Virus record (IMG/VR): IMGVR_UViG_3300027903_000007
Span: 1-57,695 of that record
Length of the DNA: 57,695 bases
Strand: one strand, 5' to 3'
Origin: a virus
Taxonomy: Duplodnaviria; Caudoviricetes
This document shows positions 12,168-37,962 of the stretch, piece after piece (position 1 is the first letter of the stretch; each line of letters opens with the position of its first letter). The notes below the pieces were generated by a model. The model was given only the letters and a program-made list of their open reading frames with translations, was not told the DNA's origin and ran no database searches. Both the position numbers and the translations under genes were made by a program.

Positions 12168-12516
12168 TGGTAGTCTTTCTTTTGAACTCCCTGTAGTAGG
12201 TTCTATAGGCATCAACACAAAGCTGACATCTACAGTTCTGACGTCGATAATATTGAGGAGTCCCATGAACCGAAGCATGAACTTCTTTATGATGTTCAAT
12301 ACAACGAAGTTCACATTTACTAAGCTCGTCAAAAACATTCTTAGAGGAGTAGCGCTTTCCTATTGTAAAAGACTTCGATTTTGAATCTTTATGATGAAAT
12401 TGAAGTCTTTCGACGGAGCCACAAACAACACACTTCCCACCAAGCAATGCCATGAATTGCGTTTTGCGACGATAATAGTGACGTAATTGAGGGCTTTGTT
12501 CTTTCATCGTCGTCAT
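12136..12516 (-). CDS. HNH endonuclease
   Basis: 'GGKCVVCG..LQFHH..KCELRCIEHH..H' plus a 'CRCQLC' tail. Confidence 0.75.
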   Translation of the reverse strand: MTTMKEQSPQLRHYYRRKTQFMALLGGKCVVCGSVERLQFHHKDSKSKSFTIGKRYSSKNVFDELSKCELRCIEHHKEVHASVHGTPQYYRRQNCRCQLCVDAYRTYYREFKRKTTNAQVRYNQHL

Positions 12517-17381: not shown

Positions 17382-17661
17382 TTCCTCCGAACTTGCGCTT
17401 AACTGCTGCGCGAGCTTCAGGGGTGATGGGGATGCTGTCCAAACCCAATGCTGCGTAGGTTGCAGCAAGGGTGCAGAGCTGGGGACGTTTGACCTTTTTG
17501 GTCCACCAATTGGCGGTGGTCCCAGCAGGCACGGAGCTCTTTTTCGAAAGATCCGAGTTGGACAGGCCTTGTTCACGTTTGATGCTCCACGCCAACCCAA
17601 CAGCTGGGTCTTGATCGGTGAAGTAGTACCTCGAGTACTTGATAAAGCCACGCTTAGCCAT
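17371..17661 (-). CDS. XRE-like HTH protein
   Basis: 'LSNSDLSKKSSVPAGTTANW..PQLCTLAA..ALG'; directly follows a cassette repeat. Confidence 0.7.
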   Translation of the reverse strand: MAKRGFIKYSRYYFTDQDPAVGLAWSIKREQGLSNSDLSKKSSVPAGTTANWWTKKVKRPQLCTLAATYAALGLDSIPITPEARAAVKRKFGGNGG

Positions 17662-17739
17662 TTAATCGATTCTCCTCAATTTGAAGCATGAGCGCTTCTC
17701 ACTGCCCCTTGTAAGGGGCAGGACAGAAATGCTCTCATA

Positions 17740-18093
17740 TTATATGACAGTCCACAAGCCCCGTTCTTTCAATTTCAGAACTTTCTCGGTTTTCAAGGCT
17801 TGGGTGTAGTACCCAATTCCCCCTTCAGATCCTCCTGCTTGTTTCATCAGGGTTCGGAGTTGGCTTGTGGGAAGATCAGTTCCTTTGGTAAATTGGCGCA
17901 CCAGCTCGGTAAATTTCTCTTTGATGCCACGAGCTCCAGATGCTGGTTTGATGGTGCCTTTATCTACCACTGCATTGATCACGGGGCGTGGCACGTCCAT
18001 CTTGACAACAAGACCGGCTGAAGCCCGGAGTAGCTTGGACAGGTTCTTGCCATCAACAAATACGTTTTGAATTACGAAAAGATCGTCACTCAT
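17740..18093 (-). CDS. Hypothetical protein, possible winged helix
   Basis: ORF bounded by two repeats. Confidence 0.65.
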   Translation of the reverse strand: MSDDLFVIQNVFVDGKNLSKLLRASAGLVVKMDVPRPVINAVVDKGTIKPASGARGIKEKFTELVRQFTKGTDLPTSQLRTLMKQAGGSEGGIGYYTQALKTEKVLKLKERGLWTVI

Positions 18094-18180
18094 GCCTTTT
18101 TCTCCTATTAATGAAGCATTAGTGCTTCAAGAAGCAAGTAACTTGTGTTACGTGTTTCTTGAAATACTAAGGAAGTGAGT

Positions 18181-18627
18181 ATGAGTAGATTGAAATCTAA
18201 AAGATATCTTTTAAGTGATCATAAGGCGCATGCTAAAAGCCGTGACATTGAATTTTTCTTTACTTATGAAGAGTGGCTTGCTTGGTGGGTAGAACAATTG
18301 GGGCCTGAATGGAAAAGCTTGCGTGGCAGGAAACGTGGTCAATATGTGATGGCAAGATTTGGTGACAAAGGACCTTATTTAAAAGACAATGTTAAGTGTA
18401 TTACACATGGGCAAAATGTTAAAGATGCTGCAAATAAAGGTGGTAAGGGAGTTGGACATAAATTGAATGCTCAACAAGTGAAATTGATATTTGCTTCTAA
18501 AGAAACTCAGCGTGTATTAGCTGTGAAATATGGAGTAAGTGAACGGTTAATTCGCCTGATAAAAAATAAACAGGTTTGGTTAACCGTTCTGCAGTCTTTA
18601 CAATCAGATAACATTGGTATTACTTGA
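18181..18627 (+). CDS. Free-standing beta-beta-alpha-Me (HNH-like) endonuclease with a C-terminal HTH
   Basis: 'AKSRDIEFFFTYEEWLAWW..GQYVMARFGDKGPY..NVKCI..QN'; AT-rich; antisense to its neighbours. Confidence 0.75.
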   Translation: MSRLKSKRYLLSDHKAHAKSRDIEFFFTYEEWLAWWVEQLGPEWKSLRGRKRGQYVMARFGDKGPYLKDNVKCITHGQNVKDAANKGGKGVGHKLNAQQVKLIFASKETQRVLAVKYGVSERLIRLIKNKQVWLTVLQSLQSDNIGIT

Positions 18628-19449
18628 GGATATTACTTCCAACTTTGGAAGTGGCTCAGGCCTGTCACCTTGGTTTCGCCAATTTAACATTCTGATTTCG
18701 GTGTTGTGATAAGCGGCATTCGCTGCCTTGATCATTAAGGCAATGGTCGTTATCGGATCTTTACGTTTCACCTTATCGGAGCTGAAATACATCCTGAGCC
18801 TAAAGAACGGATCATTGATGGTCACACCAGCTGGATTTTCCAACGTGAATACCATTCGCTCTGCAAGCTCTGGTGATCGGTTGGTCAGAATGTAATAGAA
18901 AAATCCAACCAATGATGGGTTGGCTAATCCACGTAATTGCATCACGCGGCTTACAGCCCGTTCCATGCCGGGGTTGTTTATGTAAGCCATCTCAATGTCT
19001 GAGTTTTCAATACGGTTGATGGGAGCCTGATATTTTTCAAGCGTGCCACGCTGCCATCGCAGCAACCATTGGAGAGCAGCAGAAGTAATGGCCCTGTGCT
19101 TGGTTGCCCCATTGAGGGCTAATACATCAGCGCCATTGCGGGGTTTCCGCAAGGTGTCAATAGTGGCAAACGCTTCTCTTTCTACGCCTTTGACAATGAT
19201 TGTTTCAATGGCGATTTTGGATTCTACAACGGCCCATAAGCGGTGCTGACCGTCTAAAATGTCACCATTAACTGAAAACTTAATGGTGTCTCCGTTGAAA
19301 CGCCATTTGCCTTCGATGATTTGAGCAGCAAGTCGCTTGACGTGCTGATCGTTTAAAGGCCGATTGAGTGTGTTGTGCTCAAGCAGCCTGACTGCTTCTT
19401 CAGGCGTCAGAATTATTCTCTTCAGATCGCCTTGACTTATTCCACTCAT
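18604..19449 (-). CDS. ParB/Srx-like DGQHR domain protein
   Basis: 'NRPL..GKWRFNGDTI..ILDGQHRLWAV'. Confidence 0.8.
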   Translation of the reverse strand: MSGISQGDLKRIILTPEEAVRLLEHNTLNRPLNDQHVKRLAAQIIEGKWRFNGDTIKFSVNGDILDGQHRLWAVVESKIAIETIIVKGVEREAFATIDTLRKPRNGADVLALNGATKHRAITSAALQWLLRWQRGTLEKYQAPINRIENSDIEMAYINNPGMERAVSRVMQLRGLANPSLVGFFYYILTNRSPELAERMVFTLENPAGVTINDPFFRLRMYFSSDKVKRKDPITTIALMIKAANAAYHNTEIRMLNWRNQGDRPEPLPKLEVISSSNTNVI

Positions 19450-19936
19450 TTGTGAATTCCTCTATCCATTTAGTTGTGTTGTGTAAGTGCATATTGATGA
19501 CTCGTTTACGGCCATTATTGCCCATCACAACTCGGATTAGTTCTTTAGGGTGAGGGAGCTCAGAAAATGTGCGTAGGGCTGGGCCAAACTTGGCCCAAAG
19601 AGCTTTATCAGTTGCAAGGGTTACAAGATGATTTGTACTTAATGTTTTTCCTACGCGTTTTCGTAATTCCTCCTTAATTTCAGGTGATATTTTTTTGCGA
19701 ATTTTGTCGGCTAGAGGCCGTACACCGATTTTGCCACTTCGAACATCCTCTATATCTTGGGAAGTTCCAAACTCAAGGACGGTTCTTGCCTGAGTAACTG
19801 AAGATCGTGAAACCCCAAATTGGGCAGCAGCAGCAGTTGCATGCAGTCCACTTTCTTTGAACGAAAGTTCCGCTGCTTCAAGAGCTTTTTGCGATGCGTT
19901 ATAGTGTGCCAAGTTTCTGCCTCTTGCTTTAAGCAT
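19400..19936 (-). CDS. HTH DNA-binding protein resembling a ParB C-terminal half
   Basis: 'AAAAQFGVSRSSVTQARTV..VRSGKIGV'. Confidence 0.6.
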   Translation of the reverse strand: MLKARGRNLAHYNASQKALEAAELSFKESGLHATAAAAQFGVSRSSVTQARTVLEFGTSQDIEDVRSGKIGVRPLADKIRKKISPEIKEELRKRVGKTLSTNHLVTLATDKALWAKFGPALRTFSELPHPKELIRVVMGNNGRKRVINMHLHNTTKWIEEFTNEWNKSRRSEENNSDA

Positions 19937-20313
19937 TAAGTCACCTCGAAGGTTCCGGGGAATTTCATGACTGCCGTGTAGGCAGCATAAAATTCAGCTT
20001 CGATGCGAATGAAAGAAGCTTTTGTTTTATTAATGAAATGCCGATAGGCACGGTGATCTCCATCCAGCACAAAATTGCTTTGTGTAATGAGCAATGGCTT
20101 TGTGAGTATGTGTTCAGGGATACTCATTGCCTTTTGAATATCCACTTCTTGGTGAAGCTTGAGCAGTGTGGGTTCGATGAACCCAGCACTAAAAGTCATT
20201 CCTTGTTCACCTAGAAACACAAATAAGTCAGTATATTGCTTGTCGTTGACTTGTGGCATCTTACTTCGGTTGATCAATGGGTAGACATCCATTGGTACAA
20301 ATTGCAGGCTCAT
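19936..20313 (-). CDS. Small ParB/Srx-like protein
   Basis: 'PLLIT..FVLDGDHR'. Confidence 0.65.
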   Translation of the reverse strand: MSLQFVPMDVYPLINRSKMPQVNDKQYTDLFVFLGEQGMTFSAGFIEPTLLKLHQEVDIQKAMSIPEHILTKPLLITQSNFVLDGDHRAYRHFINKTKASFIRIEAEFYAAYTAVMKFPGTFEVT

Positions 20314-20374
20314 TTTCTCCTCCTGTTAGAGCAAGGTTGCTCACCACTGCATGGGCCGCAGGACGTGAACATTG

Positions 20375-20584
20375 CTAGCTTAGGTTTGCTATGTCAGACC
20401 AATTACGATATGTTTCTTGTGCGTTCCAACACGTGTCAAGACACGCCAGAAGTGCCTTAACGTACATATCAATTCTGGCAGGGTCACATTTAACTATTCG
20501 TGCATATTGCAAGTCAGAAGAAGCGTTGTGCAATGCACGTTGAGCTAGCTTAACGGAACGTAATAAATACTCATTACTGTTCAT
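20375..20584 (-). CDS. Small hypothetical protein
   Basis: Stop codon abuts a repeat. Confidence 0.55.
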   Translation of the reverse strand: MNSNEYLLRSVKLAQRALHNASSDLQYARIVKCDPARIDMYVKALLACLDTCWNAQETYRNWSDIANLS

Positions 20585-20586
20585 GT

Positions 20587-21774
20587 TTAACCTCCACTTG
20601 TTGAGACAAGGATAGGATAACCAAATGGTACCTTATCCGCTACTGTATGGAAGTGGTTTTCGTGGGTGAACACCGCCCATAGTGTGGGGATGCCGGGATC
20701 TTCACCAAAATCATTCACTTCAAGGTCGGTGAGATAAATGATGCAGCTGGCATCAGGAATATTCTCACGGATGTACTTGAAAGTGTCACTAAAAGCAGTG
20801 CCACCTCCTCCACCTTTTAAGGGCTCAGGTTTTACAATGTCGCCCATCACGTAATGGAAAACATCATGGGCGCGGGTGTCAGCATAGATGACGGTCAATT
20901 GATCTGCCGTGCCTTGATCCAAGGAACCAGCTACTTCACTGAGCATTTCCTTGAACATTTTGTCATTGATACTGCCAGAATCATCCACGGCAAATACCAA
21001 ATGGCTGAGCCTGTCAGACACAACACCGGGCAATAGGGTGCCTATGGCAGTGCTGCGTCGGCTGATCCGCGCCCAAGAAGGCTCTTTGGACAGGGATTGG
21101 TCAATGAAGTTCCATGTCAAATCTTTCCATGAAACCTTTGGCCTATCTAACTCAGCAATCAGATGTCGTAGGATACCGGGCACGTTGCCAATACCGTTAG
21201 CTTTCATAACGGCTATGGCTGATCGCACGGCTTTATCCCAAACGTGTTTGGTTTGTTCTTCACCCGCTTGACCGTTTGGGGCATCCATTACACTTCCAAT
21301 GTCCCATCCGTCTTTATTTACATAGAACTCGATTTCAATTTTGGGAAACGAATCATAGATTTCTTCAGAGGTCATGCCTCTGTACTTTTCGTTAATGCAG
21401 CATTTAAAGTTTTTGCCACTGATCATGACGTCGTGGATCAAAGTGAAGCCTGAATCTTTCAGATCCAAATTGATCACGTAGTCACAGGCCGCATTCCATG
21501 GCCCGTGCTGCCGTTCTTGGCGTCTTGAGAAGTGTTTTAGGCAGCAGTGCATGACCTCATGGCATATCAGGAACTCACATTGCCTATCATCGAGTTGCTT
21601 GATGAAATCAGGATTGTAGTACAATGACACGCCATCCACTGCGCCAGTAGGTATGCTATAGTCTTCAACCAGCCGTAGTTGCATGGCTAGAAAGCCAAAG
21701 AAACCGTTACTGACTAACAGGTTTGTGCGGCCACGGATGATGTCATCATAAGCTTTGCGGTCTTTGATTTGCAT
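20587..21774 (-). CDS. Metallopeptidase + vWA protein (DUF2201-like)
   Basis: 'TGAVDG..YYN', HExxH 'HEVMH', 'WNAACDYVIN', MIDAS 'DDSGSI', 'GGGT', 'YLTD'. Confidence 0.85.
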   Translation of the reverse strand: MQIKDRKAYDDIIRGRTNLLVSNGFFGFLAMQLRLVEDYSIPTGAVDGVSLYYNPDFIKQLDDRQCEFLICHEVMHCCLKHFSRRQERQHGPWNAACDYVINLDLKDSGFTLIHDVMISGKNFKCCINEKYRGMTSEEIYDSFPKIEIEFYVNKDGWDIGSVMDAPNGQAGEEQTKHVWDKAVRSAIAVMKANGIGNVPGILRHLIAELDRPKVSWKDLTWNFIDQSLSKEPSWARISRRSTAIGTLLPGVVSDRLSHLVFAVDDSGSINDKMFKEMLSEVAGSLDQGTADQLTVIYADTRAHDVFHYVMGDIVKPEPLKGGGGGTAFSDTFKYIRENIPDASCIIYLTDLEVNDFGEDPGIPTLWAVFTHENHFHTVADKVPFGYPILVSTSGG

Positions 21775-21905
21775 TTATCTCCTCCTGTTTGAAGCATAGT
21801 GCTTCACTAAGAGGCTGGAGTAGAGGTAGGTCAAGAACTTGCTCCAGCCGATCCCCTACGTTGCCAAAAGGCGGACGTCTTACAGGGACATCTCTTAAGG
21901 CAGCA

Positions 21906-22271
21906 CTAGCGTATCTCGAACGATACCCGTTCATCGTCGTTAGGCTTCGTGTAAGCAGCAAATACTGAAGGTTTATCAGTTTTTAGTGCTTCTTGATCAA
22001 GCCGATTAGTGGGGACGATTTGCAGCACGGCTTTGAATTGATGACCCGGTACTTCGCCTGCCGTGTGATTGAGATGATCTTTGATATAGATCTTGATTTC
22101 CTTGTCGAACTTCTCAATGGTTTTGGCAGCAGCTCTGAAGCGGGCTGCTACGTCGATCTTGTCAGCGGTAGTCATCCGCTCCGTGTCTCTCACAATGGTT
22201 TCCATGATGTCTGACAGATAGTCAAGGTCTTCAACTAACTGTTTACGATCATTTTTCGAATATGGTTTCAT
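21906..22271 (-). CDS. Hypothetical protein
   Basis: AACAGGAGGAG SD. Confidence 0.65.
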   Translation of the reverse strand: MKPYSKNDRKQLVEDLDYLSDIMETIVRDTERMTTADKIDVAARFRAAAKTIEKFDKEIKIYIKDHLNHTAGEVPGHQFKAVLQIVPTNRLDQEALKTDKPSVFAAYTKPNDDERVSFEIR

Positions 22272-22283
22272 GCTCTCCTCCTG

Positions 22284-23333
22284 TTAGATGCGCAAGGTCT
22301 TGTTAGTTCTTGCCCATTTGACAAATGCCTGTGTTTCACACAGGGATTGATCCCGTTTGGTGGCATCCAAGATAACTACGGTGCTGAAATCAGCACCAAA
22401 GTGATCACGGTTTATATATTTCATTATTTGTGCCATGTTAGCAGTGGTCATATTTCTTGCCAGCAACGAGCTCAGGGCAAATCGTGAAGCTGGCTCTTCA
22501 GGAATTAATGTACTCATTGGATCTTTGATGACGTCTTCAAAGTCAGGTAAGTTCAGGGCAGTGAAGAAGGTTTCAACATCTGTTGCGGCTCCTTCACCAA
22601 CGATGCCTGACAACAGTCTGAAGCGCAGCGATCCATCCTTGGTGAATACTTTGGATGCTTGTGTCCAAGACCGTGGCGTTGGGAATGCCAACAAATCAGC
22701 TCCAGCCATTGAGAATAACATTTCAGGTCTCCACTTGATGTACCCCATCAAAAGCGGGTTGACATCGTTTAGATTGGCCCAGCGTAGCCAAGCTTCATAA
22801 TCAGGCCGGATGTGAATGTGTGCAAAACGGTTGGCAAGTGCCGTAGAAATAGACTGTGCAGCTGCACGGTCTTCCCTGCGATTACCTGCTGCCATAGGCC
22901 ACCAGCCGGGTGGCAATTTGAAGTCACCAATTTGGCGATCCAAAATCACACGATAGATACATGATTGTAAGTTACGTGGGGCATCACTAAGTTCATCGAA
23001 TGCAATGATACCACGTTTACCATCACGCTTTTCTTCAGGCCAAAAAGTAGCGCGTAGCCAAACGGCTACACGATTTTCAAGGTCAGGCACAGGAATACCT
23101 GTCAAGTCTTCAGGCAACATGGTGCTGACACGGACATCAATGAAGCCAGTTTTGTCTTCATCTTTGTCTTCATCAGCAAGTTGATGCATGATGGCTGATT
23201 TTCCGAGGCCCGGCGGTGAATGCAGGTAAAGAGGAATATCCTCTTCCCTGAAAATTCGAGCTAGCTCTTTCGCACCTTCAATAGTTTCAGTGCGAACCGC
23301 CGTGACCCCGGTGGTAACTTGGGTTTCAGACAT
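22284..23333 (-). CDS. MoxR-like AAA ATPase
   Basis: 'SPPGLGKS', 'FDELS', 'AAGNR', 'ALANRF', 'TPRSW'. Confidence 0.88.
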   Translation of the reverse strand: MSETQVTTGVTAVRTETIEGAKELARIFREEDIPLYLHSPPGLGKSAIMHQLADEDKDEDKTGFIDVRVSTMLPEDLTGIPVPDLENRVAVWLRATFWPEEKRDGKRGIIAFDELSDAPRNLQSCIYRVILDRQIGDFKLPPGWWPMAAGNRREDRAAAQSISTALANRFAHIHIRPDYEAWLRWANLNDVNPLLMGYIKWRPEMLFSMAGADLLAFPTPRSWTQASKVFTKDGSLRFRLLSGIVGEGAATDVETFFTALNLPDFEDVIKDPMSTLIPEEPASRFALSSLLARNMTTANMAQIMKYINRDHFGADFSTVVILDATKRDQSLCETQAFVKWARTNKTLRI

Positions 23334-23397
23334 ATTTTCTCCTCCTGTGAAGCATGGCGCTTCTCATATGGCAGCACTGCTGCCATAGATAGAAACG

Positions 23398-23769
23398 TCA
23401 GCTGATATCATCATCTTTGGTGGCTTCAGTGCCGTTGCCATCGCCGATGATGGTGGTGAACATATTGCTGTGCACTGTGCGAGCACGAGCTAATGCGTTG
23501 CTGAAGCGATGCCTGTTACCGACAAACATGCTGTGGTTTTCGCCATAAACGATATTTCTGATTATCGGAGGCAAGTTGATCACGTTGTTATCGGCATGCA
23601 GTTCATACATGCCATCAAAGCGAACATATTGGTGACCGCGATCCCTGAGGTACTGAGCAATGGCACATTGCCATGGATCACTTGCGTCGTAAGAGCCAGT
23701 TTTGGTTTCAAGCCAGTTGATCAAGTCTTGAATGTCGTCAACTGTAGCTTCTTTCTCAATATAAGGCAT
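23398..23769 (-). CDS. Hypothetical cassette gene
   Basis: Exactly bounded by two repeats. Confidence 0.7.
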   Translation of the reverse strand: MPYIEKEATVDDIQDLINWLETKTGSYDASDPWQCAIAQYLRDRGHQYVRFDGMYELHADNNVINLPPIIRNIVYGENHSMFVGNRHRFSNALARARTVHSNMFTTIIGDGNGTEATKDDDIS

Positions 23770-23844
23770 GAAATTCTCCTCCTGTTTGATGCATCAGTGC
23801 ATCTTTAAACGCATCTTGTGAGATGCGTTCCGTAGCTGCACTAA

Positions 23845-24714
23845 TCATTTCATGTAGCCTTGAACCTTTTTCAGGATGGCATCGGCCTTGCTGATGGTGA
23901 CAGCCCTCAGCTTGGCATCGGTTCGTAACATCACAGGTGATGCCACCAGATCAGCGGTTAGCCGCTTTTCTAGTTCAGTGATGCGTGGGTCGTTAGTGAT
24001 ATTAAGGATAGGCAACACGCGGGTTAGCTCAAAGATATTCTGCACGATTGAGTCCCGTATGATTGAATCTGCTCGCTTTCCAGCTTGAGGCTGATAGGCA
24101 CGCAGTTTTTCTACCATATGAAGGACCAGCTCTTCAATTCGCTTGAATATATCATCCATGGCGTTTTGAAGGCGTTGGTTAGTGCGTGTTTCAATATCTT
24201 TGACGATGGCCTTGCTGGCATCATTGCCAAGTTTAGCACGGAAATCATTAGCTTCTGGCACTGAATTGATTTCTACATCAAAGTCGAATTTTTCTTTGAT
24301 TTCATCAAGGCTCGGGTAATCCTCAGCATCAAACATTTTGCCGAGACGTACTGAGCCGTCTTTGATGTAATCATTTCGCATGGTCAAAAATTCTTTGATT
24401 TGAGCTTCTGCCTTACGTCGGCAATCTTGCATCAAGGCCACATAGTTGATGTAACCAGCGCTGGCTAAAATTCGCGTGCCATCGTCTTCCCATGGTAATG
24501 TGAGAAGCTTGTGGGTTTTGCGAGCTTTGGTATGGGCTTGTGAAACACCTTTTAGGAAACTAGAAGCGACGAGACGTTTGTTATAGCGGCCGGCTTCTTT
24601 GTCTGCCTTGTAGCTTTCATTGACGTCTTCAGTGATTTCTTTATCAAGCATCATGCCTGACCAAGATGATATGCGCAATGTAACCAGCATTGCACGTTCT
24701 GCTAAGTTACTCAT
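23845..24714 (-). CDS. DUF3150-like coiled-coil protein
   Basis: 'LVTLRISSWSG..K..TLPW..G.RIL..DYPS..F.F', a type commonly found beside phage MoxR/vWA pairs. Confidence 0.65.
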   Translation of the reverse strand: MSNLAERAMLVTLRISSWSGMMLDKEITEDVNESYKADKEAGRYNKRLVASSFLKGVSQAHTKARKTHKLLTLPWEDDGTRILASAGYINYVALMQDCRRKAEAQIKEFLTMRNDYIKDGSVRLGKMFDAEDYPSLDEIKEKFDFDVEINSVPEANDFRAKLGNDASKAIVKDIETRTNQRLQNAMDDIFKRIEELVLHMVEKLRAYQPQAGKRADSIIRDSIVQNIFELTRVLPILNITNDPRITELEKRLTADLVASPVMLRTDAKLRAVTISKADAILKKVQGYMK

Positions 24715-24890
24715 GTTCTCCTCCTGTTTGAAGCTGAATGCTTCTCACTGCGGCTCTTAAGCCGCAGGACAGAAACATTCACCAACTGGACCAATCCCAG
24801 TAAAGTGCGCGAGCACTTCTAGCTAAAAGTTTGTCAAGCCATTTAAAAGGATTGTATCTTTGGATTTTGGACCAAGGTTCAGGAGGTCGA

Positions 24891-25391
24891 TCACTCATCG
24901 GTTTGATTGATCACACCAGCATTCATTTTGAGATGCTCAGCAGCCATCTTTCGCATGCGGGTAGCTACTGCCAATTCAGCAATGGCTCCTGTGCGTTGAT
25001 AAATAGGATATTTGTCGCTGTTGAAGAGCTCAAATGCTTGCTCTTCAGCAAGATCGAAGAGTTGCATGGCAGCATTCCAATTGTCTACCGTGAACAAAGC
25101 CGTGGTCATCACGGGCACCAGCCTGCCGTCTCTTATTTGGTACGTGAGACCTTCTTTTTTGAAGGCTCCGCTGAGGACAAACAGGCCAAAGGCACAGGCC
25201 TGTGTTCCACAATTTACTGGGATTACAGTATCCTCTTTGTATTGCTTGATTTGGGGTACCTGAGAGAAGGGTTTAGAAAGGTCCACACTCGCATCAGCAG
25301 CCCAGACGTTGAGATTGAATTTGATTCCTTCTGGATTGACTGCATCTGCCTCAAGCAGTTCGGCACCTCTTAACATGAGATCTGTTCTCAT
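24891..25391 (-). CDS. Hypothetical cassette gene (CGTxACxxG motif)
   Basis: Repeat+RBS upstream; 'CGTQACAFG'. Confidence 0.7.
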   Translation of the reverse strand: MRTDLMLRGAELLEADAVNPEGIKFNLNVWAADASVDLSKPFSQVPQIKQYKEDTVIPVNCGTQACAFGLFVLSGAFKKEGLTYQIRDGRLVPVMTTALFTVDNWNAAMQLFDLAEEQAFELFNSDKYPIYQRTGAIAELAVATRMRKMAAEHLKMNAGVINQTDE

Positions 25392-25568
25392 AATTTTCTC
25401 CTCCTGTTAGAGCAAGATTGCTCACCACAGAAGCCCGTGGGCTTCTGGACGTCAGCAATCATGAATCTGAGTAATAGACCCACACAATGAATGTGTAGCG
25501 GATCCAGATAATGGACCGTAAATAGATGCGTCGTATATGACGACGCAAAGGCCGTTTCATTGTGTTTC

Positions 25569-28296
25569 CTACTTGATGTCGTCAATGACGAGGATGAACT
25601 GTTTGGGGTTTGTTATCCCCAATGCCTTCAGGGCAGCTTTGCGCAAGTAGACAGGGCCTATGACTTGACCGTCATTGTCATTTTTCCTTGGCTGCCCCGC
25701 ATCATCAACTTCCTGATAACGCATTGCACCGGGGGTATCATTTTTCCACACAAAGTTCAATTGAATCTTGGCCATGATTTTCTCCTCCTGTTTGAAGCAA
25801 AATGCTTCTCACAGCAGCCCTTAGGCTGCTGGACAGAAACATTCAGTTGAATGTATTGATGATGCGCTCAAGCGGTGACAATTTAGAATTTTCACCTTCC
25901 TTGAGCCAACGTCGCCAATCCTTGGCAGTTTTGGGTGGTGACAGAGCTTTGATGATTTTGGCTCGCACTTTTTTGCTGAGTTTGTGCTTCTTTGCCATTA
26001 CACAGGCTCTTTGATATTGGGAAAGCCGATGATGATATCGGCGTCATCCCAGCCTTTGAACCATTCAGTGGCAGCTATAAGGTCACTGACACCGACTTCG
26101 ATCTTGTTTTGCCCATAGGGGACGGCGGCACGAGGGGCACCAGCTATACGAGCTTGTACACCTTTTAGCCATGGGTCTGTTCTATTGTTCATGTTTCTCC
26201 TCCTGTTTGAAGCATGAGCGCTTCTCACAGCCCCCATAAAGGGGCTGGACAGAAATGCTCAGAAGTCTTCGTAGTTTCGATGTTTGTTCTCACCCTTTAC
26301 AGGCTCATCAGGACTCAGCATGCATCCGACATGCCAGCCGATGTATCCTGCAATGACAGTTGCGATGATTGTGAGTACAGGATCGATTTGGCAAGCTGCA
26401 AATGTTGCAAATACAGCAATGCCAGTAGCACTTCCGACTTTGGTTTCAAGTTTCATAACAACTCCTCCTGTTTGAAGCATAATGCTTCTCACTACCCCCC
26501 TTAGGGGGCAGGACAGAAGCATTTCACACCGTAGGATCAAGTGCGAACAGCAGGTTGGTGAGAAATGTCGCATGCATTTCATAATCAGGATGATAACAAT
26601 GCACAGTCCAGATCCCAATTGCCGAACAGATCAAAATAGTGCGGTAGTAGTGCCGCTTGACTTTGATTCTATGGATCGGGCAATGAATTTTGGATATTTT
26701 GAAGCCTCTCATTGGCTTACTTCTCCAACTGAGCAGTGACGGCTTTATCTGCCGCAGCTGCATAGATTTTCTCCCGGATGTTTTTGGTGAGGTTCAATTC
26801 AAAGTCGATATCGACAATTGAAATCAAGCCAACCAGAACCACCGCGAAAACTACTTTCAGTTGTTTGAGTGGGTCATCCATGTTTCTCCTCCTGATTGAA
26901 GCAAAATGCTTCTCACTGCCACCCTTAGGTGGCAGGACAGAAACATTCAGTTGAATGTGGAGGCATTTTCACTTGGGGCTAGAAGCTCAGCAATCCACCA
27001 ATCTTTGTAGAGAGTGTTTTTATTTCTTAATTGGTAGTTTACAGCCTCTTGTTCCGCTTCAAATGGGCCAATGTAGCGAAAGCCATAGACTGGGCTTCCG
27101 CTAATAATGAAGTATTTCATTGGAGGTCTTCTAGAGTTGGCCATGAGTGTAAGCGGCTGTTAGCACCAGCGCAAACAACAGGATGAATCCCAGCATTATA
27201 AGACCATTAGTTGGCAGGCCTTCATCTTCAGGTTCGTATTGCATGATTAACCTCCACAGTTGCGCAGTAGATGCGCGTAAGGCACGAAGAAAGTGACACC
27301 CAATGCGAAAGCTATGATCAATGCAACAGCTGTGAACTTTGCTAACATTTCCACGTTCTCCTCCTGATTGAAGCTGAATGCTTCTCACTGCGGCTCTTAA
27401 GCCGCAGGACAGAAACATCAGGTATCATCGATATCAAAGTGATCGACTGTTTCAGCAGCCAAATCTTCCTTGCGGTCACCAACAAGAAGCCAGCCATTGC
27501 CGTCATCACTGGGGTCATAAAGAACGTATGCTCCCGGTATCACCGCAACACGGGCTTTGAGGTTTGAAAGAACTTTGGCTTCGTCGACGCCTGAGTTCAT
27601 ATCTTCAGGCGTTAATGCATTGAAACAATCACGCGAGACCAACCGATAGCCTAACGCTTTAACCATGGTCTCATTTGCTTGATCATCTGTCATTAGGCTG
27701 CGTACCAGAGCCACGGTTCAATTCTGGCAATTTGCTCTTGTCGATGAATGAGGTACAGCTGCTGAATGGCTTGAAAGGAAGGCCAGTAGCGTACTCTTTT
27801 ATAACGTTCATGTTTGCTCCAACCCAAAGACACAGGTGGCGGAATGTCTGGGTTGACATCATGGCTAAGCTTATGAGATCCACTCATCTAACCCTCCGCT
27901 TGAGTGAAGGAATTTCCGTGAAGGAAATCTCGTTCTTGATCAAGCCAATGGCTTCATCAAAAGCGTTGATCCACGGTTCGTGGTTGGGGATATCTTTACC
28001 ACGGTTGATCTTTGCCATGGTAAGTCGCACATCGTCTAATATCCCCAATGCGCATGCTATTGCTATCTTACTCATGATTTTCTCCTCCTGTTGAAGCATA
28101 ATGCTTCTCACAGCAGCCCTTAGGCTGCTGGACAGAAACATTAGTCATAGGATGACGGGATGATAGGTAACTTCATGCGGTCATTCCATATAGTGCTGCG
28201 TTGTGACTTGGCCATCTCCATTTCAAACCGCTCTTCAGCAGCTGCCATTTCAATGACTATCCCTGTCACCAAAATGATCACGGTGATGCGGATCAT
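25569..28296 (-). CDS. Run of about 13 small cassette genes, several with TM segments (25569-25775, 25843-25998, 25998-26192, 26259-26456, 26524-26712, 26717-26881, 26947-27120, 27131-27244, 27247-27348, 27418-27693, 27693-27887, 27884-28075, 28141-28296)
   Basis: Starts reassigned by hand to the ATG after each AGGAGG or coupled stop; stops often coincide with the first bases of the next repeat. Confidence 0.6.
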
Positions 28297-28718
28297 TTGA
28301 AGATCAAGCCATCTAAGCCGTATGGCCCACCGCCTGATAATACCAACTCAATCAGGATGAGGGCGTACAGAACCTCAGGGAGGTACAGCACGTCATCCAG
28401 ATAGTCAGCCTTGTCAAGTGGCTTCCAGCCACCAATGCGTTTCAGGCCATCGGTGAATGTTGCACCACAACAGATGATGAACAATCCGAAGGCTGCTACG
28501 GGTGTGAAGAGCCCCCATAGTAACGCAATACCTCCCAAGAATTCAGCTATTGGTACAAACCAACTGTTGAATTTGGGTTCGGGGATATGATCATCCATCA
28601 TGGTTTGAGCCACAGTGGCATGACGCACTGGATTAAATAGCTTGTGATAGCCCGATATACTGAAAAATACCCCCATGCCTATTCGCAGTATTGTGATGCC
28701 GATTAAAGGTAGCTCCAT
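28293..28718 (-). CDS. DoxX family membrane protein
   Basis: 'LRIGMGVFFSISGYHKL..AEFLGGIALLWGLFTPVAA..GGGPYGLD'. Confidence 0.85.
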   Translation of the reverse strand: MELPLIGITILRIGMGVFFSISGYHKLFNPVRHATVAQTMMDDHIPEPKFNSWFVPIAEFLGGIALLWGLFTPVAAFGLFIICCGATFTDGLKRIGGWKPLDKADYLDDVLYLPEVLYALILIELVLSGGGPYGLDGLIFK

Positions 28719-28803
28719 TTTTCTCTCCTCCTGTTGAAGCAAAATGCTTCAAGAAACATATTTGTTTGTGGTATGCTTCTTGAAACATTAGTGAGAATTT
28801 AAA

Positions 28804-29103
28804 ATGGTTCAAACTCCGAAACGAGCTTTTCAATATCATCGCAATAACGCGAGAAGACGGAAAATTGAATTTAACTTTACATTTGAAGAATGGGTTAAAT
28901 GGTGGGAGACTAATTTAGGGCTTGATTGGTATTTAAAACGTGGATGCAAATCAGGGCAGTACGTAATGGCTAGGAAGCGAGATAGAGGTGCTTATGAAGT
29001 AGAGAATGTTAAATGTATTCTTTGTAATTTAAATAATCTTGAAAGTATGTACGGAGAGGGTAGGAATCACCCTCTCCGTAGGAGAAACATTCAGTCGCCG
29101 TGA
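28804..29103 (+). CDS. Free-standing HNH-like endonuclease (paralog of 18181-18627)
   Basis: 'NARRRKIEFNFTFEEWVKWW..GQYVMARKRDRGAYEVENVKCI..N'. Confidence 0.75.
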   Translation: MVQTPKRAFQYHRNNARRRKIEFNFTFEEWVKWWETNLGLDWYLKRGCKSGQYVMARKRDRGAYEVENVKCILCNLNNLESMYGEGRNHPLRRRNIQSP

Positions 29104-29258
29104 TGGCCTCTCAACCCCATACGCTCTTCCATGAGGTCAGCCACGTAATTGGTGACGTTTACCAAGTCTCTCATCTTGATGGCCACATAGAGCGAGGCAA
29201 GCGACACAATGAGCGTTGTGGCTGTGGCCAAGGCCAGCAGGATCATATCGACTACCAT
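29091..29258 (-). CDS. Small membrane protein (55 aa)
   Basis: Hand-translated MVVDMILLALATA...; its TGA begins a half-repeat. Confidence 0.55.
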   Translation of the reverse strand: MVVDMILLALATATTLIVSLASLYVAIKMRDLVNVTNYVADLMEERMGLRGHHGD

Positions 29259-29263
29259 GATGG

Positions 29264-29740
29264 TCAGTCTATTGCGTCGATGACGCCGACCGCGTCATTA
29301 GCTTCGAAAACTGATTCTTCAGCATCAAGCCCTTCCATGAAGCCTGCTGCTGCTGTGCCCTTCTGGCCGTTATCGTTCAGCGTGTATTCACCATTGTCGA
29401 CAAAGTAGGTGAACATGGTTGTCTGAATGACTTCGTTGACAGCTTCTCGCCATTCACCATCTTTGATGATGTTGACCCCTACGCCGACCGAGTCACGACC
29501 ATCAGCAGCCACTGTAGCAACAACGTTTTTGCCGATGTTGATGTCTTGGAAATTGACTGTGACAGTGCAGTCACCCCAAGCTGGGCCATGCCGGAGGGCA
29601 ATGGCATTGCCGAGGTTGCTAACGCGCCAGTCGTCGCCAATGCTGAGTTCGTCCAGACCTACTGTAAATTCATCACTACTCCATGTCAGGGTTGGTGTGG
29701 ACAGGGTCTTTTCGGGATCGCCTACTTTATAGAATATCAT
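29264..29740 (-). CDS. Acidic hypothetical cassette gene
   Basis: ATG follows the repeat RBS. Confidence 0.65.
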   Translation of the reverse strand: MIFYKVGDPEKTLSTPTLTWSSDEFTVGLDELSIGDDWRVSNLGNAIALRHGPAWGDCTVTVNFQDINIGKNVVATVAADGRDSVGVGVNIIKDGEWREAVNEVIQTTMFTYFVDNGEYTLNDNGQKGTAAAGFMEGLDAEESVFEANDAVGVIDAID

Positions 29741-29809
29741 AATATCTCCTCCTGTTGAAGCAGGATTGCTTCTCACAGCATCCCATAGGATGCTGGACAG
29801 AAACATTCA

Positions 29810-30016
29810 TCATTTAACTCGTAACTTCCATGGTCTTCGGGGTACTTCCGCAGGAGTGAGCCTGCGCTTTCGCTCCAGTTCAGTTTCTTGAGCTACAGCG
29901 GTTGCTATGGCAGCTCGGCATTGGTCACAGCTGACTCTCTTCTTCAGATGATACTTGTACTTGAACCATGTACCGCAATGCCTGCAATATTTACTACGGG
30001 TCGAGCCTCTAAGCAT
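29810..30016 (-). CDS. Small Zn-finger protein
   Basis: CRHC...CDQC. Confidence 0.55.
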   Translation of the reverse strand: MLRGSTRSKYCRHCGTWFKYKYHLKKRVSCDQCRAAIATAVAQETELERKRRLTPAEVPRRPWKLRVK

Positions 30017-30018
30017 TC

Positions 30019-30519
30019 TTACCTCTCTTCAAACGCAAAGCGTGAAACGTCAAGGACATACCCAACTTCGTGACGCTCAAGAGCATCAATAGAATGTTTG
30101 TGCAGTTTTGGTTGAAGTTCAAAGGCTTCCCTTTCCCATGGAAGATCTTTGTAAGCCACGTCAGAAGTACAAATGAATTTTGGGAAATACTGACCGCACC
30201 AGTTGCACCCTCCTTCTTGCTCTTGCACATCTGAAAGATCACCGCGCAAGTATTGAGCGATGTGAGTTGTTTCATGGCCAAGCACTGAGATGCCTTCAAA
30301 CAGATTGAATCCGTTTGCATTGAGTACGACCATGAAGTAGTCGGATGTTAAGCATCCCATTGACCCTAGATGATTTTTGGGGCCAATGTTTGCGCGACGT
30401 ACAGCTACGGTGCAATCACGTTCTGTGATGCCAAGATGCTTACAGTTCGACTTGAATGTTTTTGTTAGGATGGTTTTTTCCTTTTGAGTGAAACCATCAT
30501 CAAAAAGAATGGTTGGCAT
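30019..30519 (-). CDS. HExxH metallopeptidase-like protein, first gene of the cassette array
   Basis: 'LGHETTHIAQY..YKDLPWEREAF'; AAACAGGAGGAG SD. Confidence 0.75.
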   Translation of the reverse strand: MPTILFDDGFTQKEKTILTKTFKSNCKHLGITERDCTVAVRRANIGPKNHLGSMGCLTSDYFMVVLNANGFNLFEGISVLGHETTHIAQYLRGDLSDVQEQEGGCNWCGQYFPKFICTSDVAYKDLPWEREAFELQPKLHKHSIDALERHEVGYVLDVSRFAFEER

Positions 30520-31901
30520 GATTTTCTCCTCCTGTTTGATAATCATGATGATCATCGGAGGTGACAGCAACAAAGACATTCAGCTGCACTCATTTGGGGG
30601 AATGAGTCGGGGTATTTGCAGCTTTGTTCCCTATCGCTTCAGGGGGCTTGGTGGAAAAGCGATAGTTGCCTGAGCACTGTCACCACCGATAATCAAAGGT
30701 GATGAAAGGAGCTGGCCCGTAGGCCAACCCCCTTCACCTTTGTAAACAGAAGGAGGAGATATTTCACCAATGCCCATTTATGCGCAAAGCAAACTTTACC
30801 GGCAGCTGCATTAGGTTTGGGCAAACAGATAACAAGTTGATTGGTTTGCCGTTGCGTTTGAGGGGTATTAATAACTCAGGGGTAGTTTCAGAATAGAGTG
30901 TAGTGATGCTGTGTAATTGCATTCATGCTGCACATCCAAGCTTTAGTGCCGTTGCTTTATTTGCAGTTGGATGACCTGCCTACGTACCCGCGCCGAACCT
31001 AAACGGTTACAGCGGCTGTAGGTGTGGAACCCTACGAGAATTATACTTATAGGTCAGTTTGTGCGGCATTGAGTTAAGAACCCATGCCAAACGCGCCTAG
31101 CAGCCCTTAGTGGTGCCCTTGCTGAAAAGGGCTAGTACCCTAGCTAAAATTTGAAATAGCTCATTATGAGCCATTTGTGGCCCGCCTAAGGGCTATTTTA
31201 GCGTTGTAATACCGTGACTTACATTTTGACATGCAAAACCTGCCGAATTTAGTTTTAAACAGGTTTGCACATGAATGCTAATTCTTCAGCTGCTTTACTT
31301 GAGGCAAAATGGTGCATTGGTGACCGTGGCCCATGCTGGCATGTTCGGGTTTGTCAACCGTTAGCGCCTTTTATTATGCGCCTATGGCTTTACACCGTGC
31401 GCCGCATATGGCGGCATCATGCTAGCTTGCGCATGTTTCAGCGCGGGCTCAATCCGGGGCAGGTATGCTTTCACTGCTAGTGCCAGTTTGACCGGGGTAG
31501 GCTTCAATGGAAGCGCTTGTTTGTGCAGCGCCGTCATAGTGACATAAGCCTTGACCATGTAACCAGCGGGCTTGATTTGCCCTTTTCCTTTGGGGCTTAG
31601 GGCTGAGGAGCGCCGTAGCGTTCAGCTTGTAACCTTCATAGCTTAGGGGTGAGGACTGACCAGATTCACCTTGTCACCTTAGCAGCCTAGAGTTCCTGCG
31701 TTTATTGGCCGGTTTAGTGTCACGCCTTAGTGCACTCCTATTGCGGCTGGCTCACCGCGCCAGCTAAGCCTTTGAAGGGCTTAGCTGACTTTTTGCGCCA
31801 CCTGAATTCGTGCCGTGAACAGGCGCAAATCAGGCAGCAGTGCCCAACACTAACCCGGTCAAAATGTGTGCAAAGCCAGAAGTTACGCTTCTTCACAAGT
31901 T

Positions 31902-32460
31902 TTATGGAGGTGATGTTTCCGCTTTATCCCTGATCAAAAGCATTTTATAGATGGTGAGACCATGAGGGCCGGATAGAGCGCGACAGATTTCAATATCTCT
32001 AAATGTAAAATTGGTTTTCATATCCGCTAAATTCTTATATCCTAGAAGCTCACACAAAGTAACTGGATTCATGTTTCCTTGACCTAAATATGGATCAAGA
32101 TTACTATAGACCCTGATTCGTAATTCTGCATTTTCATCTCGTTGGTCCTGTGTCAGTTTCATTGACCTTATCCTTCCATTTGATCACCAGCATTTTGTAG
32201 ATGGTAAAGCCATGCGGCCCACATAGCAGTTTTAAGATGTGAGTTGATTCATCTGTCCATTCTTCAGTCATTTGTTTAATATCCTTGTATCCAAGGATAT
32301 TGGCTATGTGTCGATGTGATGGATGTGGAAATGGATTAACTAGAACAGAATCAATCAATCCTTTGGATTTCCATTCCCAAAGTCGACCATTTAAATGAGT
32401 GTAAGGGATACTGCCTAGCATATACCAATCCTCTTTGAAAAGTGGACTCATGTGAACCAC
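31902..32460 (-). CDS. Two 'GPH' family paralogs (31902-32162, 32134-32460)
   Basis: Shared 'LGYK..M..L.GPHG.TIYKML.I'. Confidence 0.7.
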
Positions 32461-33359
32461 ATCCTGATCAATTTGCGGTCTTTGTCGATGACATTGCTGT
32501 TGCGTCTGTGGATGTATTGGTATTGATCAAAGATCAAGGTATCACCAGCTGACCATGAATAGGGCACGGCGCATTTATCCAAGGCAATGTAGAGGGCCTG
32601 CAGCGCATCCGTGATTTCACGGATAGAAGGCTGTTCATGAAGTGATAAGCCCGGCAAGGCACTGACATGCCCGCGTGAAGCCAATAGCATTCCTTTGATA
32701 TTAAAAAGAGGATGGGCATAAATGCCATTATGTCCAATATAATGAGATTGTAGCTTGTCAACGGTATTTAGATGTTTTTGGCTTAGCAAATATTGGACTT
32801 CAACGACATGAGACAACTCGGTTTCAGCTAATCCGCAACCGGCATCCAAGCAATGCAACAGCACGTATTGAGGTGGCACGGGATGATACAATCCATCTGA
32901 ATGCCAATCAAAGTATTCAGTACGGTTAGAATAATCGTTGGGATTGTCTTGATGCATGGCAATAGTGTAATCCAAACCAGTGGTTTGCTTGATATGTTTC
33001 GATAGAATTGTAGCCCATTTATTGGGATCAAAATCAGGCAGATTGCAGTAGAATGGAGTTTTAAACAATTGATAATGGCTCATGTTTGTAACCTTTTGAT
33101 CAACACAGGATTTCTTTAAAACCAGTATTTTATAGATAGTAGGACCATGAGGACCACATAACAATTCGAGCTTTTCACGGTCTTCTTCCCGGAAGTTATA
33201 CATCATGATCTCACCATTGGGGTAATCCAGCAGCCAAGCTAGATGGGTATAGGCCGGATCATCTCCCATTCCAATGTTGATTATAGGGACTTTTTCGACA
33301 ACACCCCAATCTATTAACAATTCAGCGACTTGTATTCGCATCTCCCATGTGGCGATCAT
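32448..33359 (-). CDS. TauD/TfdA-like Fe(II)/2OG dioxygenase in frame with an N-terminal 'GPH' domain
   Basis: 'WHSDG..YVLLHC..WSAGDTLIFDQ..IHRR..RKLIRMW'; internal ATG at 33083. Confidence 0.75.
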   Translation of the reverse strand: MIATWEMRIQVAELLIDWGVVEKVPIINIGMGDDPAYTHLAWLLDYPNGEIMMYNFREEDREKLELLCGPHGPTIYKILVLKKSCVDQKVTNMSHYQLFKTPFYCNLPDFDPNKWATILSKHIKQTTGLDYTIAMHQDNPNDYSNRTEYFDWHSDGLYHPVPPQYVLLHCLDAGCGLAETELSHVVEVQYLLSQKHLNTVDKLQSHYIGHNGIYAHPLFNIKGMLLASRGHVSALPGLSLHEQPSIREITDALQALYIALDKCAVPYSWSAGDTLIFDQYQYIHRRNSNVIDKDRKLIRMWFT

Positions 33360-37887: not shown

Positions 37888-37962
37888 GCCGGTTTAGCAC
37901 AGTGGAAGTGCATCTCATTTGTAACGAGAAGGTCGTGGGTTCAAATCCTACAACCGGCACCA
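37888..37962 (+). tRNA. tRNA-Thr(TGT)
   Basis: Full cloverleaf: GCCGGTT/AACCGGC acceptor, TT-TGT-AA loop, GGTTCAAATCC, encoded CCA. Confidence 0.95.

Follow-up and report, generated by a model that had tools for sequence, protein, structure and literature searches.

We describe an RNA element of about 65 nt that recurs along one gene block of the IMG/VR virus record IMGVR_UViG_3300027903_000007, a tailed soil phage (Caudoviricetes) whose 57,695 bp (45% G+C) were analysed in full and are referred to below as the window. Sixteen copies occupy the gaps between small genes on the minus strand, all of them on the coding strand and between a stop codon and the next Shine-Dalgarno (SD) sequence (16/16). 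The typical copy can be folded in two ways, either into a long two-part hairpin that begins at the stop codon or into a small alternative hairpin that closes a few bases ahead of the SD sequence. Three segments of the element covary, which implies two mutually exclusive pairings, and judging from the comparison of copies both hairpins are under selection. We give about an even chance to the idea that the element is a cis-acting intercistronic module for RNA processing and insulation, which would refold on a polycistronic phage transcript.

Two alternative hairpins between stop and start codon

An unfiltered search of the whole window with a covariance model built from 78 non-redundant copies (R1) gave 16 matches at E < 0.01, every one on the minus strand and within 17671–29811. 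They score 21–88 bits compared to 18 bits for the best plus-strand match, and the search found nothing comparable elsewhere in the 57,695 bp. A first-pass annotation, made from the sequence alone, had listed about 16 elements in this range, ten of them with exactly 18 nt between GTCC and GTG, and both figures hold. The genes of this region lie on the minus strand and the motifs of that annotation are therefore read on it, where GTCC-N18-GTG occurs ten times, all within 17724–29798, against once on the plus strand of the whole window; the seven inner-stem pairs quoted at the time are all present too, the copy at 26461–26527 being a wobble-containing variant. Similarly, CAGGAGGAG occurs 16 times on the minus strand (20325–30534) and once on the plus strand, and a direct-repeat search recovers families of 7 to 11 copies at the same places. 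At gathering thresholds Rfam matches only a tRNA in the window, and at E ≤ 5 it gives five weak matches in 17500–30800, one of which overlaps an element (Alpha_RBS, 16.6 bits against a cut-off of 38).

Read 5' to 3' as RNA, the element consists of a stop codon, segment 1, the bases GUC, an upper stem with its tetraloop, the bases UG, segment 2, a short loop and segment 3 (GCUUC), whose sequence complements that of segment 2. Segment 3 is followed by 4–5 bases, GGAGGAG and the start codon, so that a conserved motif, AACAGGAGGAG, stands directly ahead of the start codon. Segment 1 is the 9-nt pyrimidine-rich 5' strand of the lower stem (typically AAUGUUUCU) and segment 2 its 3' strand (AGAAGCAUU). 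This stem had been put at about 10 bp with a conserved T.G pair; its length is in fact 9 bp, and the wobble is confirmed: at one position, 76 of the 110 aligned copies have U.G, 27 have C-G and 3 have U-A. The upper stem, of 8 bp and capped by the tetraloop, is hypervariable between copies and almost always perfectly paired.

Covariation in the long hairpin is extensive. Across 110 R1 matches 96.8% of its cells are paired, compared to 70.6% after shuffling (the observed value was reached in 0/500 shuffles) and 37–57% when the partner strand is slid; both sides have changed in 15 of the 17 pairs, and the upper helix is 99.8% paired. RNAalifold, run on a MAFFT alignment, draws the same long hairpin with 10/16 pairs compensated.

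Further counts come from two model-fitted alignments that were pooled (248 matches, 244 of them unique and 234 full-length). The long hairpin, whose free energy is –23 kcal/mol at the median, has 15–19 bp in 223/234 copies. UACG is the commonest loop (66/234 copies); next come UAAG and GCAA-type loops and related tetraloops. In 148/234 copies the internal loop has GUC facing UG, and its discrete alternatives (ACC/UC, ACA/CA and GC/AG) mostly retain the 3x2 shape. Upper stem and loop together measure 20 nt in 124/234 copies, with a range of 15–32 nt and one copy of 60 nt; the fixed 18-nt geometry reported at first pass is thus a property of the window but not of the family. Wobble cells (G.U or U.G) number 257, compared to 49 for A.C or C.A, most of them being the single conserved U.G. 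From this wobble excess, the RNA-type tetraloops and the co-orientation with genes we conclude that the long hairpin forms in RNA and on the sense strand. A subtype found at 6291–6356 and 6840–6904 of locus L003 (relative G001), as well as in several copies of locus L013, has UUUCG/CGAAG as its lower stem and a 2x2 loop (GC/AG), with a compensated change at the pair adjoining the loop and the alternative hairpin retained.

The position of the hairpin relative to the genes is nearly constant. Sufficient upstream sequence was available for 219 copies, of which 209 follow an open reading frame (ORF) of at least 30 codons; in 170/209 the stop codon of this ORF has its first base at –2 or –1 relative to the lower stem, so that its last bases form the stem base. 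Within the window the stop codon starts 1–5 nt ahead of the lower stem in 11/16 copies, and the first-pass statement that stop codons form or abut the element is therefore correct in both samples. In most copies the start codon lies 63–75 nt past the start of the stem.

The second fold joins segment 2 to the segment downstream of it. A helix of at least 5 bp is available in 223/233 copies, and the alternative GAAGC...GCTTC fold proposed at first pass is present and covaries, including the forms GAGCA/TGCTC and GATGCA/TGCATC. Segment 2 differs from GAAGC in 34 copies, and 30 of these pair with their own downstream segment, compared to 43% and 12% of trials in which partners were swapped. There are about ten arm classes (e.g. 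GAGCA/UGCUC, GAUGCA/UGCAUC, GAAACA/UGUUUC, CAGUCA/UGACUG, GGAGC/GCUCC and UAGAGC/GCUCUA), and in each of them segment 1 has changed to match as well. Covariation over some ten sequence classes points to selection on a structure rather than on a promoter sequence.

A structure-blind MAFFT alignment of 20 rows gives the same picture, with 88.4% of the cells of the alternative hairpin paired (70.0% when shuffled, 26–40% when slid) and 4/5 pairs compensated. These rows were taken from 26 candidates. Four of those dropped were repeats of classes already present and the other two differed in length (L077:1366, whose helix in its own register has 8 bp, and L003:11026, whose helix has 6 bp), and the 20 rows still include two without segment 3 and one that is out of register.

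Predicted minimum free energy (MFE) structures pick either state in part of the copies, which suggests that the two are close in energy. With flanking sequence the long hairpin is chosen in 12/16 copies of the window and the alternative in 4/16, and for the sequence from stop to start codon only the figures are 14/16 and 2/16. When the first 19 nt are kept single-stranded, a constraint that mimics a terminating ribosome or a lost 5' strand, the thermodynamic model predicts the upper hairpin together with the small hairpin in 13/16 copies; this result and the covariation of both folds give good support to the switchable hairpin envisaged at first pass. Blocking the 5' strand also raises the predicted probability that the SD sequence is unpaired, from a median of 0.37 to 0.62 over 223 copies (up in 149, down in 31), and in 11/16 stop-to-start folds the pyrimidine 3' arm is paired to SD purines. 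A pairing of segment 1 with the SD sequence (to ACAGGAG, in 2/16 MFE folds) was also considered and dropped, since ACAG is constant across the loop classes and the pairing shows no covariation.

Copies in the window and in related phages

The 16 elements, with their R1 scores, and two sites that carry the ribosome binding site (RBS) motif are as follows.

29745–29811, minus strand: element 1, canonical; 79.3 bits; upper stem AGCAUCC/GGAUGCU; stop codon 29812–29810, next gene starts at 29740
28724–28793, minus strand: element 2, degenerate; 38 bits; lower-stem halves doubled into one long perfect hairpin without the variable upper stem, alternative hairpin and SD retained; adjoins the plus-strand HNH-like ORF 28804–29103 (phrog_16521 match)
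28081–28146, minus strand: element 3, canonical; 84.3 bits; upper stem AGCAGCC/GGCUGCU, same as element 8; stop codon 28143–28141, offset –1
27357–27423, minus strand: element 4, canonical; 82.2 bits; upper stem UGCGGCU/AGCCGCA, same as element 10; 91% identity over 79 nt to the copy at 24700–24778
26885–26951, minus strand: element 5, canonical; 83.7 bits; upper stem UGCCACC/GGUGGCA; predicted MFE fold is already the alternative hairpin
26461–26527, minus strand: element 6, canonical; 77.2 bits; C-G replaces U.G in the lower stem, wobble pairs in the upper stem
26196–26263, minus strand: element 7, canonical; 71.9 bits; outer lower stem GAGCA/GCUC; stop codon offset –2
25781–25847, minus strand: element 8, canonical; 86.8 bits; heads a cassette missing from G001, with the homology break at 25851
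25397–25463, minus strand: element 9, subtype B; 59.2 bits; lower stem AUUGCUGAC/GUGAGCAAU, with GAGCA/UGCUC as the alternative hairpin; covariation with respect to the canonical type extends to all three segments, and the orthologous copy in G001 has the same stem
24717–24783, minus strand: element 10, canonical and top-scoring; 87.9 bits; predicted fold –33.4 kcal/mol, z-score –3.75 against shuffles
23775–23846, minus strand: element 11, divergent; 23.3 bits, E 7e-4; 10-bp upper stem, lower stem GUGCA/UGCAC, alternative hairpin GAUGCA/UGCAUC
23338–23403, minus strand: element 12; 53.7 bits; internal loop AUC/UG, upper stem of 9 bp with a 3-nt loop; stop offset –1
21778–21843, minus strand: element 13, divergent; 26.2 bits, E 1.4e-4; alternative hairpin and SD retained, another upstream hairpin in place of the canonical long hairpin
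20316–20377, minus strand: element 14, subtype B'; 40.2 bits; short upper stem
18101–18172, minus strand: element 15, degenerate; 21.3 bits, E 0.002; adjoins the plus-strand HNH-like ORF 18175–18627 (phrog_16521 and phrog_59 matches)
17671–17737, minus strand: element 16, canonical hairpin; 71.4 bits; weaker SD (UGAGGAG)
30517–30560, minus strand: RBS motif AACAGGAGGAG at the block's first gene, lacking the bipartite hairpin; partial R1 match, 15.4 bits; also an indel junction relative to G001, window 30539–30517 aligning to two places in G001
22274–22308, minus strand: RBS motif without the hairpin; partial R1 match, 15.2 bits

The two HNH-like ORFs are paralogous plus-strand genes (18175–18627 and 28804–29103) that both match phrog_16521, the longer one also weakly matching HNH endonucleases (phrog_59). 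Each adjoins one of the most remodelled elements, in which the upper stem has been replaced by TTTCAAGAA...TTCTTGAA inverted repeats. From their sequence and position they may be homing endonucleases that have landed in or beside repeats.

The element is widespread beyond the window. A pattern fixing the two 9-base lower-stem halves finds 8 stretches in IMG/VR, and with a spacer of 16–22 it finds at least 114 stretches in metagenome contigs. Among the pattern matches listed, 132/194 (from 128 loci, some overlapping one contig) have at least five contiguous inner pairs and the other 62 have none. As a control for chance, the same 16–22-spacer pattern was run over 185,579 prokaryote genomes, one per species; it gave 65 single matches, only one with at least five inner pairs, and this lone match lacks the other features of the element. 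The inner stem is therefore more frequent than chance, and the element is not a bacterial repeat.

With a cut-off of E ≤ 0.01, R1 itself matches at least 277 times in 58 loci (339 kb) of viral and metagenomic origin. Five relatives of the phage carry 17 matches (G004; 93.5 kb, complete; all on one strand at 69.2–85.2 kb), 11 (G001; 64.8 kb, 70% complete), 4 (G005; 76.6 kb, complete), 2 (G002; 93.1 kb, complete) and 0 (G003; 95.0 kb, complete). The 34 matches in the four relatives that have them are all co-oriented with genes and clustered. Searches of the literature on phage intergenic repeats or hairpins and on RNase III sites between genes returned no description of the family, and searches with the motif strings gave unrelated primer matches only. 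Since there is also no Rfam match, the RNA family appears to be undescribed.

Possible processing, translational coupling and recombination

The model that we infer involves cleavage of an early, polycistronic transcript, with effects on the stability and translation of the products. In the default state segments 1 and 2 would pair while the RNA is being made and hold the very stable upper hairpin in place; the resulting two-part helix, of about 17 bp and with a 3x2 internal loop, would match the substrates of bacterial RNase III in size and shape. Segment 2 could then be freed in either of two ways, by host RNase III or another double-strand endonuclease cutting at the internal loop, or by a ribosome that terminates on the embedded stop codon and unwinds segment 1. 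In the second state segments 2 and 3 would form a hairpin of 5–6 bp that ends 4–5 nt before the SD sequence GGAGG. The upstream cistron would then end in a protective 3' hairpin, the downstream cistron would start with a 5' hairpin and an exposed, standardized RBS, and each small accessory gene would be expressed independently of its neighbours.

Repeated intercistronic hairpins on polycistronic mRNA are a feature of phage T7, whose RNase III sites (R0.3–R1.3) reportedly lie in the early intergenic gaps (Dunn and Studier); the T7 record carries no such annotation. Four of the five T7 gaps that were folded have a lower stem of 5–8 bp, an internal loop and an upper stem of 9–13 bp with a variable apex, and the fifth region (5350–5430) has the upper stem only. 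In genes 0.4 and 0.7 the stop codon lies in or beside the lower stem. The elements share with these sites the arrangement of lower stem, internal loop and variable-apex upper stem between cistrons of a transcript that is here presumably polycistronic, a helix of about 17–20 bp, a stop codon in or near the lower stem and an SD sequence within tens of nucleotides. Their agreement with the T7 early hairpins in size and bipartite shape suggests a geometry like that of RNase III substrates.

There are also clear differences from T7. No sequence relationship is apparent, since R1 run on the T7 early region reaches only 17.5 bits (E 0.003 over 7.7 kb; T7 6417–6466, equivalent to L199 5918–5967) at the hairpin between genes 1.2 and 1.3, which is presumably an RNase III site, and 6.4 bits at a second hairpin, compared to 21–88 bits for the copies in the window. 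T7 has five copies, whereas there are 16 in 12 kb here, with a small 3x2 loop, and the elements have a third segment, not seen in the T7 folds, whose alternative hairpin covaries and keeps a constant spacing to the SD sequence. On the enzyme itself, the excerpted text of Pertzev and Nicholson (PMC1540722) gives two helical turns as typical for substrates of the E. coli RNase III, describes internal loops as restricting the enzyme to a cut in one strand, which leaves protective 3' hairpins, and treats cleavage of the T7 sites as proven.

Several observations weigh against processing by RNase III. A median of 17 bp plus the loop is at the short end for the E. coli enzyme, and there is sequence conservation in the lower stem and the internal loop (the loop being GUC/UG in 148/234), which RNase III does not require and which could indicate a sequence-specific protein. 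Neither the window, a linear phage fragment rated 62% complete by CheckV, nor the five relatives yielded a gene for RNase III, so that a host enzyme must be assumed. The search of sequence runs found one DNA run and no RNA run containing the record. The counts of pairing, loops, wobbles and placement were taken from model-fitted alignments, which lean toward the R1 structure, and the seed pattern fixed 18 bases (the two 9-base halves of the lower stem). The pairing that would mask the SD sequence is only 4 bp long and is drawn in 11/16 copies, and the embedded stop codon would fit a cleavage-free translational-coupling switch equally well.

Such a switch is the main rival of the processing module, and we consider it rather unlikely. 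In this scheme a ribosome terminating on the upstream gene would melt the pairing of segments 1 and 2, segment 2 would capture the SD-masking segment 3, and translation of the downstream gene would follow that of the upstream gene. This would account for the stop codon at –2 or –1 of the lower stem (170/209), for the pyrimidine 3' arm drawn paired to SD purines (11/16 folds), for the predicted rise in SD accessibility when the 5' strand is blocked (median 0.37 to 0.62) and for the covariation of all three segments. However, the masking helix is 4 bp including a wobble, and the very strong SD sequence (AGGAGGAG) would probably outcompete it; nor would coupling need the rigid 8-bp hypervariable upper stem with its stable tetraloops or the conserved 3x2 loop. 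The placement of the stop codon is not specific to coupling, since abutting stops also occur in two T7 early hairpins.

A second part of the first-pass interpretation was that genes are gained and lost at the repeats. Between the window and G001 the proteins of the block are 35%–94% identical with gene order kept, and blastn reveals eight differences in gene content, 8/8 with breakpoints at element edges. The claim thus holds as far as position goes, but it discriminates poorly, since nearly every intergenic gap is an element and coincidence of breakpoints is weak evidence by itself. Three of the eight breakpoints lie inside the repeated SD motif (window 30539–30517, window 24734–24718 and G001 12181–12192), and there the SD stretch aligns to both sides of the indel, as would be left by exchange between direct repeats. 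Orthologous positions mostly hold elements in both phages, but with different upper stems, and identical stems recur within a genome: two pairs in the window (elements 4 and 10, and 3 and 8), and in G001 one stem three times and two others twice each. This pattern points to copying between elements or to gene conversion. In the single DNA run, contigs show no joints in the region and have 5/6 loose ends in or at elements, which is uninformative as contigs break at repeats and lose rare forms.

On these comparisons the recombination signal plausibly resembles homologous exchange between repeats, as repeats of this length would allow anyway. It is plausible that the repeats of about 65 nt act, as a by-product, as points of homologous recombination for the gain, loss and replacement of cassettes. 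We would go further only tentatively, to the possibility that the element serves as a natural plug-and-play adaptor for expression. As a bistable RNA of three segments, it would be flipped by a terminating ribosome or an endonuclease out of the clamped two-part hairpin and into a form with a 5' hairpin and an accessible RBS, insulating any gene placed between two copies, and the repeat would supply the homology; a new gene might on arrival be insulated, stabilized and translated at a standard rate.

It is improbable, in our view, that the elements are primarily DNA-level recombination or mobile modules (PeSL-like, MITE-like or landing pads of homing endonucleases) that shuffle cassettes and whose RNA structure is incidental. 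Breakpoints at element edges in 8/8 cases and three indels flanked on both sides by the SD motif would be expected of such modules, but with an element in almost every gap, an indel of whole genes must fall at one in any case. Concerted evolution, with different upper stems at orthologous positions and identical copies within a genome, would fit as well, as would the two paralogous HNH-like ORFs adjoining remodelled elements; yet the elements keep orthologous intergenic positions between relatives, unlike a jumping element, and co-orientation, sense-strand wobbles, RNA-type tetraloops and exact placement relative to stop and SD argue for selection at the RNA level. No tyrosine integrase (PF00589) was found in the window or in G001–G005, four of which are rated 100% complete, in a search whose control was positive in 14/14 genomes, and no Y1 transposase (PF01797) was found in the window. 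The DNA contigs showed no joints either, but contigs cannot show rare forms.

Hairpins that repeat between genes in other replicons offer partial parallels. Integron attC arrays likewise consist of short ORFs each with an imperfect palindrome that has conserved outer arms, unpaired bases and a variable centre. That analogy, drawn at first pass, fails for want of a tyrosine integrase in the window or the four complete relatives (the first-pass remark that no integrase is visible was accurate), and it differs further in the wobbles, the RNA-type (UNCG, GNRA-type) tetraloops and the SD coupling seen here, and in that the elements do not occur in prokaryote genomes. REP/REPIN and Correia palindromes are also multi-copy intercistronic hairpins; they can stabilize upstream mRNA, and some are cut by RNase III or affect termination near a stop codon. 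Unlike the elements they are chromosomal and spread by RAYT or other transposases, whereas the window has no Y1 transposase and no true copy of the element was found in 185,579 prokaryote genomes, one per species.

Two phage repeats come nearer in placement. The SAS/ESAS motifs of Cluster K mycobacteriophages are, in excerpts of their description (PMC3203893), asymmetric SD-containing motifs a few bases before the start codon, in one orientation and confined to the non-structural half of the genome, often with inverted repeats around a variable spacer upstream and with an upstream stop codon that may fall inside the motif. The motif there is of the 13-bp GGGATAGGAGCCC type, compared to AACAGGAGGAG here, and the host group is another; the ESAS authors, in the same excerpts (PMC3203893), take departures from the repeat to speak against RNA pairing and favour a DNA-binding protein, whereas covariation is strong here. 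The PeSL elements of T4-type phages, as excerpted (PMC2839356), are a precedent for DNA modules and are similar in being a repeated composite motif that runs from the upstream stop codon to the next SD or start among small genes of unknown function, and they mark the junctions where related phages differ by an insertion, a deletion or a replacement (excerpts of PMC2839356 and PMC4122927). A PeSL, however, is a strong sigma-70 promoter with a terminator stem-loop, and the elements here have no promoter-like site or U-tract, form a bistable RNA with three covarying segments and belong to a phage that is not T4-like.

A further alternative is that the elements are binding sites for a phage-encoded RNA-binding protein or endoribonuclease, a repressor or a processing enzyme, that reads the sequence and structure of the lower stem and loop. 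We find this distinctly improbable. Conservation of the lower stem and 3x2 loop in a few discrete classes, with an upper stem free to vary, would suit such a protein, and most genes of the block have no known function; but no candidate was identified, several stem and loop classes in one genome would demand a tolerant protein or more than one, and segment 3 would be left unexplained.

There are 26 sigma-70-like sites compared to 33.2 ± 5.8 expected and 21 terminator-like sites compared to 18.5 ± 4.2, none of either kind on the minus strand inside an element, and no U-tract follows the hairpins. A sigma-70 promoter or intrinsic terminator was ruled out on these grounds, and the elements match neither simple promoters nor an Rfam family, two identities that had been raised at first pass. 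Searches of the window and four relatives turned up neither a sigma factor nor a T7-type RNA polymerase, the latter a weak negative as the control matched nowhere. The largest ORF in G004, a complete genome with 17 elements, is 914 aa, which leaves no virion polymerase of N4 size, and an N4-type hairpin promoter, suggested by homologues of an ATPase of the block, was dropped for this reason. This ATPase, which is MoxR-like, is 30–35% identical to its closest homologues in culture, and most of the phages that carry them are presumably N4-like.

That each element is a transcription unit, with a terminator-like hairpin and a promoter of sigma-70-like, phage-specific or N4 hairpin type, is therefore highly improbable: the order of stop, hairpin, motif, SD and start resembles that in excerpted PeSL descriptions (PMC2839356), the small hairpin has a 5–6-bp stem with a 3–5-nt loop and the ATPase homologues point towards N4, but against this stand the missing minus-strand promoters and U-tracts, the lack of a suitable polymerase or sigma factor and stems that covary over about ten classes, as expected of a structure and not of a promoter sequence.

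Implications and gene setting

If cleavage and refolding do take place, a large RNA family of at least 277 copies in 339 kb lies outside Rfam, and the T7 model of early operons processed by RNase III would extend to unrelated, uncultured soil phages, with the addition of a second conformation near the RBS. Were the adaptor idea also true, these phages would possess a widespread counterpart of the engineered ribozyme, hairpin or Csy4 insulators, one that couples expression to gene shuffling. The element might then offer a compact natural design of about 65 nt for insulating cistrons in synthetic operons, and would be a concrete case in which to ask whether expression signals double as recombination scaffolds in hypervariable accessory regions. 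For annotation, R1 marks gene starts and the direction of transcription in phage contigs that are otherwise mostly unannotatable.

The phage itself is distant from those in culture. Megablast against cultured phages gave no match to the window, and the portal protein is at most 34% identical to its homologues, in Bradyrhizobium and Brucella phages. On the minus strand, at 4–11 kb, are the genes for a primase, a DnaB-like helicase and another helicase, and the plus strand has those for the terminase large subunit, portal and major head protein at 40–49 kb.

Ahead of the first gene of the block is a leader (30517–30740, minus strand) that is 84.7% identical to G001 over 183 nt, and just upstream a terminator-like hairpin of 17 pairs (30738–30701). 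The best sigma-70-like site on the minus strand is at 35538–35510; the promoter feeding the array was not located. Two auxiliary genes of the block and of the region upstream of it are unusual for a phage, those for a DoxX-family membrane protein and a TauD/TfdA-family dioxygenase (28293–28718 and 32448–33359, both minus strand), one in the small-gene block and one upstream. The stretch 20587–23333 (minus strand) encodes the MoxR-like ATPase (phrog_1297) and a DUF2201 protein that has metallopeptidase and VWA-like domains.

A tRNA gene (37888–37959, plus strand; Rfam RF00005, 67.7 bits), the tRNA match mentioned above, occupies the gap between the divergent minus- and plus-strand gene blocks. 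The terminase large subunit gene (40405–42882, plus strand; 825 aa) is split by an intein, with an Intein_splicing domain (PF14890) at residues 273–505 and a Hint module at 240–308, both of which sit between the two terminase halves.

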